Shown here piece after piece: positions 42,025-51,211 of a DNA stretch of 64,000 bases. Source of the DNA: Prorocentrum cordatum (taxonomy: Eukaryota). The stretch's first letter is position 1. Each line of letters begins with the position of its first letter. A program made the position numbers and the translations under genes. The notes beneath the pieces were generated by a model. The model searched no databases and was not told the DNA's origin. It worked only from the letters and a program-made list of their open reading frames with translations. The stretch lies in NCBI GenBank assembly GCA_963575745.1, contig CAUYUJ010000070.1, positions 310,001-374,000 of the forward strand, given 5' to 3'.

Positions 42025-42408
42025 TTTGGTGCTTTGGTGCCTCGGCGGCCTGGGGCGTCTGCACCTCGCCAGGCCCGTGCGCAGGGCCCTCGGGCGACGT
42101 CCGTCGCCTGCCGAGCCCGAGAGAGGGGCCGAGCCGCGGGCAGCGCCCCCGCGCGCTCCCCAGGGCGGGGCCGCCGTGGCCCCCTCGAGGCCGCGCCCCA
42201 CCCTAGGCCCCTCAGCCTGCCGCCAAGGGGGGCCGAAAAGCAGCGAGAAACGCGCCACGCCCAGGCCACCCGCAACGCGGGAAGGTAGGCCCGAGCGCCC
42301 CGAGCGGGGCGGCAGCCCCGCCCAGGCCCCTCAGCTCACGGATAACACCGCGCCAAGGGGGGCCGCACGCACTGAAACCAGACAGATCATTGAACGAGCA
42401 CAACGGCC

Positions 42409-45400
42409 TCACCTCAGATCCCGTCCAGTTTTTGGGTCCTGGCCGCGCTGGATGCGGCGGATGCGCCTGAGGCGCTCCCTGTCGCCTGGGTCACGCGGGT
42501 CCAGCCTCCTGCACGGCCCGCCGAGGTTCCTGGCCACCGAGCTGTAGTAGGAACCGCAAACCACGCAGACCACGAAGTGGCCGATGATCTCGACCGTATG
42601 CGGCCGCGGCTCCGACGAAGCGGCCCTGGCCGTCCCAGGCAGCGCCTGGCCACTCCTGGCGGGCTGGGCAGAGGCCGCCCGCCCGCGCGCACCCTGCTCT
42701 GGCTCCGAGGCCGCCGCGGCCGCAGCCGAGGGCGGCGGGGGCCCCGCCAGCGGTGCCAAGCCTCCCTGGCCCAAGCCCGCCGCCGCCGCCGAAGATGCTG
42801 GGGAACCAGTCCTTGGGGCCTTACCACCGTGTTTCAGGCTGCCCTGTCCAGCACGAGCTTGGTGTGCCGCCAAGGGGGCGGAGCACGCTGCGGCCGCTGC
42901 CTGGGTGGCAGCCTTGCCGTCCACGGCCAGGGAGCTGGCCAATTCGCCCAGATCAGCTCCAGGCTCACCATCAGGTTGAACCGCAGTCGACACCGTGGGA
43001 ACCGCTGCCCCAGCGCCAGCCACTCCACCGCCGACCACTTCTTGGGAACTGGTGGCTGCCGCACTGCGGATCCGCAAAACACCCTCCCGCCTCACCCCAC
43101 CCGCTGGAGCTCCCTCCTCCTGTGGCTGGAGTGCCCTGGGGGCGAGGTCGGGATTGGGCGACGACACGCGCTCCGACGCTTGGGTGCCGGTGGCCGCCGT
43201 GCCGCCTGCCTCCACCACCTCGAGGTCGCTGTGCACGCTGAGGGCCGCGAACTCGTCGGCATCGTCGTACCCCATGGCGCCCTCGGCTGCGCGGCCTGCC
43301 GCATCACCTCCTTGGTCGTCCTCCGAGGAGAGGGGCTCGAAGACCCACTGGTGCCACGAAGCCGTCTCAGGCGGGGCACGATCTCCCAGAAGCTCCTTGA
43401 AACGCTCCCTGACCTGGTTCAGCACGTCGAAGTGATGCCGAAGCAGCCGACGTCGCTGTTTGGCTGTCAAACCCGAGTCAGGCCGTACTCTGGCGAACTG
43501 GGCCTGACGGGCTGGCTCGGCCCGCGTCCAAGAGGTAGCGCATAGGTCGTCGACTACCTGCCCTAGAGTGCGGCCAGGGTTGCTGCGTAAAAGATGCTCT
43601 CGAACTGGAGTCCACGTCGCCAGGCTGAGAAACCTCTCAAGGTATTCCGAACACCACGTACGGTAGTCCCACTCGTTGGTGAAGCCTGCCACGTCGAAGC
43701 GATCGATCCAGAAAGACGCCCAGATGATGGCATCGTCCATGATGGAACGGACCTGCTGCTGCTCGAGCGTGATGTGCGGCTGGCTTGACGGGGTTCCCAT
43801 GCACGCAGGGCCGTCGGGTATCCGCTCCATCCTGCCCAGAGCCTCACGGGCTGCTGCGACATGAGCCCACAGCGGGTCGGGGCCCAGCTGGGAGGCTGGC
43901 GCAGGGTCGGGCTCTACCCGAGGCTCATCCTGATCTCCATGGTCTGCCCGTTGTCGGACAGGCCGAGCGGCGGCGCCTGCTGCCACGAGAAGAGGCACTG
44001 CCACCCTGCCTCTCTTGACCGCACTCTTGACTAACTTGCCCTGGAGCCCTTGGAGACGACCACGGCACTCCTGCAACTGAAAGGCCGCGAGGCGAGTGCG
44101 GGCAATCTTGCCGCAGCTGGTGCACTTGGAATAACCGCGGCACACTTCCAGAACGTGCGGGTGCCTGGGACCAGCCTGAGGTCGCGCTGCCTGCGGAATG
44201 TTGGCCTCTTGGCCCTGCTGTCGTTTGGGCCTAGGCTCCGCCAACTTGACCCCGTCGAGGAGGACCCTGAAGTGCCCGATGTACTCGAGCACGCGCTTGG
44301 TGGCCTTGAGCTCCTGCTTGACCTGCAACGTGGCCCACTCTGGCGGCGCGCTGAGGTCTGCCCCTTGCTTGGCCCATTCGTCTGCTAAATCATTGTGCTT
44401 CATATGAATCTGGACCTCCTCTGGCAGCTCTAGACGTTTGGCCTGCGATATGTGCGAGGTGACTTTGATGACAGACAGCTCTCTGCCAGGAAGGATGTCC
44501 ATGTCGTCCAGGCGGTCCCAGATCTCGAGCCAGACGTGCGCATAGGGCCTGGCCGAGGAGCAACACCATGCCCTGCCACGAGCCAAGCCTCGGACCACCT
44601 GGGCATTGTCAATGATGATGGCCGTGATGAAGAGCGCATGCCTGAGGGCGTGGAGGAGACCCCACAACTCTGCCAGGGCCGAGCTGGGGTCGGGAAAGGG
44701 CAGTGGGCCGTACAGGCCCTGCACCACATCATCGGCCTCCGCTGTGCACTGCAAAGCCGCCCAGCCGCCGTGCCTGAGGTCATCCAAGCCCTTGACTGAT
44801 CCGTCCGACACCAGCACACCCGTGAGCTCGGGGGCCGCGCCATTGACGATCCAATAGGTGCACTGCGACGGTAGACTCCAAGCCAAGCCGTAACATGGGG
44901 TCCGCCGCAAACCCCGTTCCCATAGCCACCTTGAGGCTTCCGACGAGGAGGCCGACACGCCCAGGTGGACGACGTCTCTGAAGGTAGGTGATGCGTCGTG
45001 GGCTGTCAGCTGCTCCCTTACTGTAGCACACGTCGGGCTGCCGCACCGCCAGTAATAGTGCTGGTGCGTGCCGAAACAGGTCGTGTCGTCGCACAGCTGG
45101 CAATACGGAGTGCCCGCCTGGCCCGACAAGAAAAGAGCCTCCTGCGAAGGGAAACCTCCCAGCACCGCCTTCTTGACCGCGTCGGCATGGTGCTGCAGCC
45201 ACCCGTCCTGCTTGCGTCGCTTGACCAACTGCCTCGCTGGGGTGAGCCACGGTGCTGGCAGGAGCGCCGCCCGCTCGGGCTGGGCCGCCGCCCACTGGCA
45301 CAAAGCTCGGGAACGGGCGGCCAACAGCACGGCGGCCTCAACGGACTTGGGGCAGATCTGCAGTAGATCCAGATGTACGTCCCCTCCTTGGAGCACTCCG

Positions 45401-51189: not shown

Positions 51190-51211
51190 CTTGAGCCAAA
51201 ATGGCTACGGT
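51190..51211 (-). other. Perfect dinoflagellate spliced leader (DinoSL) at the retrotransposon 5' terminus
   Basis: Plus strand cttgagccaaaatggctacggt reads ACCGTAGCCATTTTGGCTCAAG on the minus strand, 22/22 to DCCGTAGCCATTTTGGCTCAAG. Confidence 0.97.

Follow-up and report, generated by a model that had tools for sequence, protein, structure and literature searches.

Can a retrotransposon carry the leader of its host's messenger RNAs as its own 5′ end, and what would such a terminus say about how the element spreads? This question is raised by a long interspersed nuclear element (LINE) in a 64,000-nt stretch of the genome of the bloom-forming dinoflagellate Prorocentrum cordatum (contig CAUYUJ010000070.1, positions 310,001 to 374,000; the whole stretch is hereafter called the window and all coordinates are given on it). 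The element lies on the minus strand, where it starts with the dinoflagellate spliced leader (DinoSL) and continues through two long open reading frames (ORFs). It is well established that host genes may be preceded by DNA-encoded relict spliced leaders (SLs) (PMC7245778; PMC6050394; PMC12014239; PMC8045281; 10.1101/783902); what sets the present case apart is that the retro-copied, SL-tagged unit is the LINE itself. Dinoflagellate genomes hold thousands of retro-copied genes with relict SLs, and the source of the reverse transcriptase (RT) behind them is an issue on which this element may bear.

The spliced leader at the 5′ end of the element

The minus strand at 51211-51190 reads ACCGTAGCCATTTTGGCTCAAG and agrees at 22 of 22 positions with the DinoSL, the sequence of which is DCCGTAGCCATTTTGGCTCAAG (PMC7245778). 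The leader is placed between a (CA)n tract of about 380 bp and ATGATCTG, and the sequence immediately 3′ of it is ATGATCTGTTCC. The first base of the 22-mer, an A, is ambiguous, as it could be SL position 1 (D = A/T/G) or the last base of the CA tract. The 21-nt SL core, CCGTAGCCATTTTGGCTCAAG, has one site only in the 64-kb window, at which it is matched without a mismatch in a search that tolerated up to three. A chance match was rejected, as a DinoSL was found in none of 100 dinucleotide-preserving shuffles of the window. The initial annotation, made from the sequence without database searches, had reported an exact leader at the junction of element and microsatellite, and in this it was right. 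It had also raised the possibility that tandem SLs accumulate at the ends of the element, which was not borne out at the present copy, where neither tandem nor relict SLs are seen; a degenerate candidate in the 5′ untranslated region (UTR), beginning ACCGCTAGTCC, was no better than shuffles (P 0.71).

A separate SL-like stretch, CGCAGCCAAGTTGGCTCA, is found at 49928-49911 (minus strand), inside the end of ORF1 and about 50 nt before the ORF2 ATG. It equals the SL core at 15 of 18 positions, an alignment score that is reached in 6% of shuffled elements (P about 0.06), and may be due to chance.

The leader as the boundary of a multicopy family

Other copies were viewed through Logan contigs of four public runs from four studies (X1-X4), matched to 42010-51225 at 90-100% likeness. 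The element was matched by 293, 77, 89, and 200 contigs in X1 to X4, which covered 30, 28, 30, and 30 of 30 bins, respectively. The matching contigs represent variants with <1% to 10% divergence, and the family is multicopy. Six contigs (two in X1, one in X3, three in X4) match the element as far as 51210 and then run into unlike sequence, which is unique sequence in X1 and (AGG)n in X3 and X4, compared with (GT)n in the window. The similarity between copies thus stops exactly at the 5′ end of the SL, and the SL terminus appears to be a property of the family and not of the present locus. The initial annotation had considered that full-length copies might extend upstream of the SL position with conserved element sequence; the opposite was observed, the copies stopping at the leader with differing flanks.

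The sequence directly behind the leader also seems to be shared more widely than the rest of the element. The contig ends at which similarity breaks off, of which 24 of 56 are listed, with nine indels beyond those listed, include loose ends before 51139/51140 in X1, X2, and X3, where contigs share only 51139/51140-51210 and then diverge. Further contigs share the stretch from 51132 or from 51113-51116 to the SL before diverging, the consensus of these ends being visible for 30 nt only. Our reading is that the SL and about 50 nt behind it are nearly unchanged across subfamilies whose remaining sequence drops below the 90% threshold. A non-autonomous family, or a leader of foreign origin, would be an alternative source of this pattern. 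By eye, the continuation at 51132 can be recognized as a diverged version of the window UTR (...GCCCGACAG...), and an apparent GGCTCAAG in this loose end is, by our reading of the contigs, diverged UTR and not an antisense SL. The 30-nt consensus of the alternative continuation does not occur in the window. Summed contig depth in the 5′ bin was 629/58/29/331 (X1-X4) vs. mostly 26-142/0-13/2-21/8-21 in the other bins, and reached 988 (X1) and 770 (X4) at 51182, however, summed contig depth is a poor measure that cannot rank the parts of a gene and is taken as a hint only.

Among predicted proteins, the nearest are four NCBI gene models labeled Prorocentrum cordatum. P0002 is 92% identical to the window protein by BLASTP (95% over the matched stretches of an HMMER search), P0003 starts with the ORF1 N-terminus, and P0004 and P0005 represent a second subfamily with 62-64% protein identity and the same ORF1 start. 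Indels in the ORF1 region of other copies are multiples of three (49723-6, 50793), and no relict SLs were seen among the listed contig differences. The 22-mer behind the SL had no matches in viral, metagenome, and genome contig collections, and a search of contig collections for related loci with the relative P0156 returned no locus. In the 3′ part, at 42376-42943, about 30 listed positions separate the window from every contig of the four runs, compared with about seven listed over the next 6 kb. Either the 3′ end of the present copy is that of another variant, or the runs represent strains other than the one sequenced here.

Element identity and anatomy

Pfam recognizes little in the window's own ORF2 protein. 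Only sub-threshold RVT_1 matches were obtained (E 5.7e-4 and 5.6e-5), no family was found in its endonuclease, RNase H, N-terminal, and C-terminal parts (including the C-terminal 756 amino acids), and a search of PDB chains with the single window protein gave no match. Relatives are far more informative. An exhaustive HMMER search returned 2448 cluster representatives at E ≤ 1e-3, 176 of them at E ≤ 1e-30, and Pfam on 16 relatives detected RVT_1 in 10, RNase_H (PF00075) in seven, and Exo_endo_phos (PF03372) in four, with all three domains in two relatives and none in three. The nearest of the gene models, P0002, is named "RNase H type-1 domain-containing protein" in its source. In a 25-sequence alignment the window protein keeps every invariant residue, among them the K, R, D, and YVDD of the RT. 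The family profile matches human L1 ORF2p (5.1e-12), an R2 protein (3e-10), and exonuclease III (1.4e-5), as well as L1 endonuclease chains and retroviral RNase H chains (7e-5 to 1e-3). Because of these profile matches and the presence of all invariant catalytic residues, the element is, judged by its protein sequence, a non-LTR (long terminal repeat) retrotransposon, a LINE of the APE-RT-CCHC-RNase H type, with the APE-type endonuclease N-terminal to the RT and the CCHC knuckle between the RT and RNase H. The initial annotation had named an APE-RT-RNase H ORF2, which stands by way of the profile of relatives and gains the CCHC knuckle, although APE and RNase H are undetectable by Pfam on the element's own sequence. 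ORF2 is unusually long, with N-terminal and C-terminal extensions of ~460 and ~650 amino acids that have no known family. The C-terminal extension (42409-44364, minus strand; amino acids 2276-2926) contains CxxC ... CxG ... GH ... CxxCG motifs that are kept in distant relatives.

ORF1 is separated from the SL by a 5′ UTR of 122 nt and has G+C contents of 0.81 at third (GC3) vs. 0.53 at second codon positions (GC2). Amino acids 45-63 (nt 50935-50879, minus strand) form a C-x2-C-x11-C-x2-C zinc-ribbon-like motif that includes W and N in between, and behind it lies a coiled-coil-like region. By its pattern we take this motif to resemble a RanBP2-type zinc ribbon, without confirmation by Pfam, as a Pfam scan assigned no family to ORF1; an atlas search with ORF1 gave no usable match. 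The related gene model P0015 is named "RanBP2-type domain-containing protein" in its source.

The true start of ORF2 is most likely M444 (nt 49860), the ATG of which overlaps the ORF1 stop (cagATGcgTAAg). A single frame is nevertheless uninterrupted from 51189 to 42409, a total of 2926 codons. Its portion upstream of M444 (51189-49861, minus strand) begins at the ATG right behind the SL and runs for 443 codons across ORF1 with no stops. Synonymous-codon shuffles of ORF1 (5000) had 5.4 ± 1.6 stops in the ORF2 frame and never zero; about five would be expected over the ORF1 region from the rate of off-frame stops in the body of ORF2. The translation of these ~440 codons, overlapping ORF1, is rich in Arg, Ser, and Pro. 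It may be that ribosomes begin ORF2 at the first AUG and come to ORF1 through leaky scanning. No predicted proteins with the 443-residue upstream extension were found, only P0003 being matched, at 19% query coverage.

The 404-residue ORF1 and the open ORF2 are followed by a 384-nt 3′ UTR and 76 bp of (CA)n, which upholds the initial description of unbroken frames, and the element is apparently full-length and functional, as far as its sequence can tell. Neither UTR folds convincingly compared with shuffles (5′, z -0.71; 3′, z -1.82, with 6 of 100 shuffles folding equally well). The motif ATGATCTGT, common to the 5′ end and the 3′ UTR, was rejected as a signal (P 0.72). No LTRs or second copy were found in the window, where blastn of the element returned the full self-match only. 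A target-site duplication cannot be delimited inside the microsatellite, (CA)n being present on both sides. The features are collected in Table 1.

Table 1. Parts of the SL-bearing LINE and its immediate flanks, listed in the direction of its transcription.
Feature	Position in window	Strand	Basis
(CA)n upstream flank of ~380 bp, including a (CGCA)n block	51212-51592	-	Sequence reading, repeat detection
DNA-encoded dinoflagellate spliced leader, 22/22	51190-51211	-	Exact match and shuffles
Box directly behind the SL, 49 nt, starting with ATG; common to further sequences that diverge downstream	51141-51189	-	Contig loose ends
Rest of the 5′ UTR	51068-51140	-	Sequence reading; fold no better than shuffles (z -0.71)
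ORF1, 404 aa	49853-51067	-	ORF reading; N-terminus kept in P0003, P0004, P0005
ORF2, 2483 aa from M444; same frame open upstream to the ATG at 51189	42409-49860	-	ORF reading
Predicted APE-type (exonuclease III-like) endonuclease: QEH (E952), D1075, D1116, H1142	47740-48453	-	Invariant columns, profile, PF03372 in relatives
Predicted reverse transcriptase, YVDD at aa 1670-1673	45910-46815	-	Weak RVT_1, profile, RVT_1 in relatives
Predicted CCHC zinc knuckle: C2030, C2033, H2044, C2049	45043-45102	-	Invariant or nearly invariant columns
Predicted RNase H (DGS ... AELW ... IDNA ... H ... NDLADEWAK)	44365-44832	-	Invariant D, E, D, H, D; profile; PF00075 in relatives
3′ UTR, 384 nt, GC-rich, ending CACCAAAGCACCAAAA, no poly(A)	42025-42408	-	Sequence reading
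(CA)n, 76 bp, 3′ tail or other half of a split microsatellite	41949-42024	-	Repeat detection

Surroundings and insertion site

The window has a G+C content of about 0.6 and is very rich in simple repeats, chiefly AGG/CCT trinucleotide tracts (at least 15). It also contains satellite arrays at 12280-12899 (75-nt unit), 13645-15095 (26/52-nt unit), and 25183-26374 (89-nt unit, 13.6 copies), and a search with Rfam found no RNA family in it. (GT/CA)n tracts number only two in the 64 kb, one adjoining each end of the element. This suggests that a (CA)n 3′ tail may have annealed to a nicked microsatellite, or that the element has a preference for simple repeats. Any specificity for (CA)n is putative, given that the other 5′ flanks seen consist of (AGG)n in X3 and X4 and of unique sequence in X1. 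The end of the window cuts a further LINE RT fragment, at 63476-63995 (minus strand), which is much more diverged. Outside the element, all 34 tblastn matches of family proteins fall within this fragment, the best at 9e-14.

A proposed route of propagation

How might a leader that is added to RNA come to be the first 22 nt of a DNA element? The RNA of the element would receive the 22-nt DinoSL by trans-splicing, as host mRNAs do, and the ORF2 protein of the element would then reverse-transcribe the mature RNA in a target-primed reaction that runs through to the 5′ terminus. For the former we rely on the exact SL at the boundary, and for the latter on the anatomy together with the family-wide SL boundary. 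We consider both steps very probable. In the present case the insertion would have taken place in a (CA)n microsatellite, leaving a DNA copy that starts with the SL. A sense transcript through such a daughter copy could be trans-spliced in turn, leading to re-expression. If the acceptor were the AG that ends the integrated SL (CTCAAG|ATG), the same 5′ end would be regenerated, whereas use of an internal AG (CCGTAG|) would add a 15-nt relic. A 5′ UTR without a relic is compatible with the terminal AG being used, or with a copy that is one generation removed from a master. Under this scheme no promoter that defines the start of the RNA would be required, as any sense-strand transcript could be cut and capped by trans-splicing. 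Re-expression of SL-bearing daughters through the AG of the SL itself is plausible, although on this step we lean slightly toward doubt.

Taken as a whole, the explanation that we favor, if only by a modest inclination, is that a trans-spliced LINE mRNA was copied over its full length into cDNA and that the SL acceptor is reused in this way. The anatomy, the identity of the domains, the multicopy nature of the family, and the SL as the shared limit of its copies are all observed. Several points weigh on the other side. The published relict SLs in transcripts are, in the parts of that literature drawn on here, mostly 5′-truncated and reduced to CCATTTTGGCTCAAG or CTCAAG (PMC12014239). Such truncation implies that host retrogenes commonly use acceptors located within the old SL or 5′ of it, a usage by which relics would be added; none are seen here. 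The 3′ end of the element is without poly(A), and the other copies are known from short assembled contigs of other samples only. Furthermore, there is no recognizable host gene nearby to supply read-through transcription, given that Pfam recognizes nothing in any of 18 long flanking ORFs and that GC3 picked out only repeat-driven frames in the flanks.

The scheme may also be extended. The encoded SL and the ~50-nt box could constitute a reusable landing site for trans-splicing in a self-perpetuating, promoter-independent LINE lineage, in which the first AUG would open the ORF2 frame across ORF1 and which would be the RT engine of the SL-tagged retrogenes of dinoflagellates. If true, any sense read-through transcript would regenerate an exact, capped, and translatable mRNA. 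We offer this extension tentatively and regard it as rather unlikely in full.

Alternative explanations

The leader could have been acquired without having any part in propagation. In LINE populations a master-copy structure is usual, and a few source loci with a true acceptor upstream of ATGATCTG but no encoded SL could give rise to SL-bearing copies that are first-generation dead ends. The exactly one SL of the present copy, its lack of a relic, and its position in a repeat-rich stretch without recognizable genes would all suit such an origin. SL-less masters should branch from the SL-bearing copies at 51189/51190, however, and none of the 24 listed loose ends (24 of 56) is found there. Furthermore, the depth at 51208, within the SL, is 264/47/27/178 and not below that of the body bins given above, as far as contig depth, a poor measure, can tell, and the SL-bearing copy is itself intact. 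We therefore judge a master-copy origin unlikely, though still to be taken seriously. It is also conceivable that the encoded SL and the ~50-nt box start transcription at SL +1, so that the RNA would have an SL-like end by mimicry and without trans-splicing. There is precedent for this in Pr77, a conserved 5′ promoter of autonomous and non-autonomous retroposons in another trans-splicing lineage (PMC8190864; PMC1874656). The first ~70 nt of the element also seem to be common to more, diverged sequences than its remainder, judging from the loose ends at 51139/51140, 51132, and 51113-6. Nonetheless, the first arrival of the SL on the element would still need an SL-capped RNA, the fold of the 5′ UTR is ordinary, and an internal promoter of this kind seems improbable to us.

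The same pattern of loose ends could be produced by a chimeric 5′ end, in which the SL and ~50-100 nt of another abundant SL-capped RNA were joined to a 5′-truncated LINE cDNA through template switching by the RT or through recombination. The 6-30x excess of summed contig depth in the 5′ bin over the body, and the contigs that are common over 51113-51210 only and unlike thereafter, could be explained in this manner. In contrast, homology of the continuation at 51132 to the window UTR is as expected of diverged subfamilies, a second subfamily does exist (P0004 and P0005), contigs from each of the four runs extend without a break from the module into ORF1, and the start of ORF1 is conserved; a chimera is accordingly a very improbable source of this terminus. 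That the SL adjoins a LINE also brings to mind insertion into SL RNA genes, of the NeSL-1, SLACS, and CRE type, or an SL RNA gene that happens to lie next to the element. The SL gene reads SL-GTACACATTGGG (PMC12584245). Here, the complete 22-nt leader is instead followed by ATGATC of the element in place of the GTACAC of the intron, the 3′ flank consists of (CA)n and unrelated DNA with no remainder of an SL gene, upstream flanks vary between copies, Rfam matches are lacking in the window, and the endonuclease is of the N-terminal APE type. Such an origin has next to no credibility. Hardly any weight can be given either to a chance match or to a chimera of the assembly at the microsatellite, for which the initial annotation had allowed. 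Assemblies are prone to error in long microsatellites, but the shuffles described above speak against chance, and the junction of SL and UTR is covered by contigs of all four independent runs, a cover that applies to the element side of the leader and not to its junction with (CA)n at this locus.

Significance

Reverse transcription of a trans-spliced LINE mRNA, our preferred explanation, is a logical consequence of universal trans-splicing combined with full-length reverse transcription. We nonetheless found no published report of a LINE that begins with the DinoSL in the full-text literature, a scope outside which Repbase reports, subscription journals, and bioRxiv supplements lie. In the portions of the relict-SL literature that inform this account, the RT behind relict-SL retrogenes has been called unknown, with LTR elements favored (PMC6050394), and retroposition and retrotransposition have been called independent (PMC7245778; PMC6050394; PMC12014239; PMC8045281; 10.1101/783902). 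LINEs of the Symbiodiniaceae have been described as ancient and inactive (PMC8045281; PMC10235124), and those of Symbiodiniaceae and Polarella as ancient remnants. An intact LINE with a complete SL on its own copies would mean that the LINE machinery of this dinoflagellate copies SL-capped RNA to the very 5′ end. With a candidate enzyme named, the question of which RT made the retrogenes becomes testable. The element also suggests, in a simple way, how a LINE may maintain a fixed 5′ terminus where recognizable promoters are few, and hints at how such elements, and many retro-copied genes of dinoflagellates, may have spread.

Comparison with known systems

The closest parallel is provided by the relict-DinoSL retrogenes, which are recycled processed cDNAs under the model of Slamovits and Keeling 2008 (PMC7245778; PMC6050394; PMC12014239). 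As in those genes, judging by the accounts drawn on here, a transcription unit is immediately preceded by an encoded DinoSL, the trace left when a trans-spliced mRNA was reverse-transcribed. Under the accepted model, those genes are expressed again after receiving a new SL. The unit that was copied here, however, is a retrotransposon with an endonuclease, RT, and RNase H of its own. Its SL is complete, single, and the shared terminus of a multicopy family, and its 3′ end is (CA)n and not poly(A).

Among APE-type LINEs with RNase H (the L1-like, I, ingi, and Tad groups), the element is conventional in having an ORF1 and an APE-RT-zinc knuckle-RNase H ORF2, no LTRs, an apparent simple-repeat 3′ end, and multiple copies. 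It departs from them in its very long ORF2 and in the strong divergence of the family, of which Pfam detects only RVT_1 below threshold. NeSL-1, SLACS, CRE1/2, and CZAR are likewise LINEs that are physically linked to the SL in trans-splicing organisms and that draw on the SL system for their 5′ ends. Their insertions, however, occur at a fixed site within SL RNA genes, and their endonuclease is restriction-like and situated C-terminal to the RT; they are not known to have an APE domain. In the present element the complete SL forms the 5′ end itself, the loci vary, and the endonuclease is of the APE type, in agreement with the distinction that was drawn initially. Microsatellite-specific LINEs, for example the (AC)n- or (TC)n-specific elements of the R1 group, resemble the present copy with (CA)n on both sides, the only such tracts in 64 kb; with the other 5′ flanks seen, a microsatellite specificity of the family is no more than putative. 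Finally, a short 5′-terminal module that is conserved across diverged elements is known from the trypanosomatid retroposons L1Tc, ingi, NARTc, RIME, and SIDER/DIRE, where the 77-nt Pr77 serves as an internal promoter that yields unspliced transcripts (PMC8190864; PMC1874656). Both modules are of similar length (~70-77 nt) and, from what these sources describe, both belong to lineages with SL trans-splicing and polycistronic-like transcription. The module of the P. cordatum element differs in that it begins with the SL itself, and any promoter role for it is putative.

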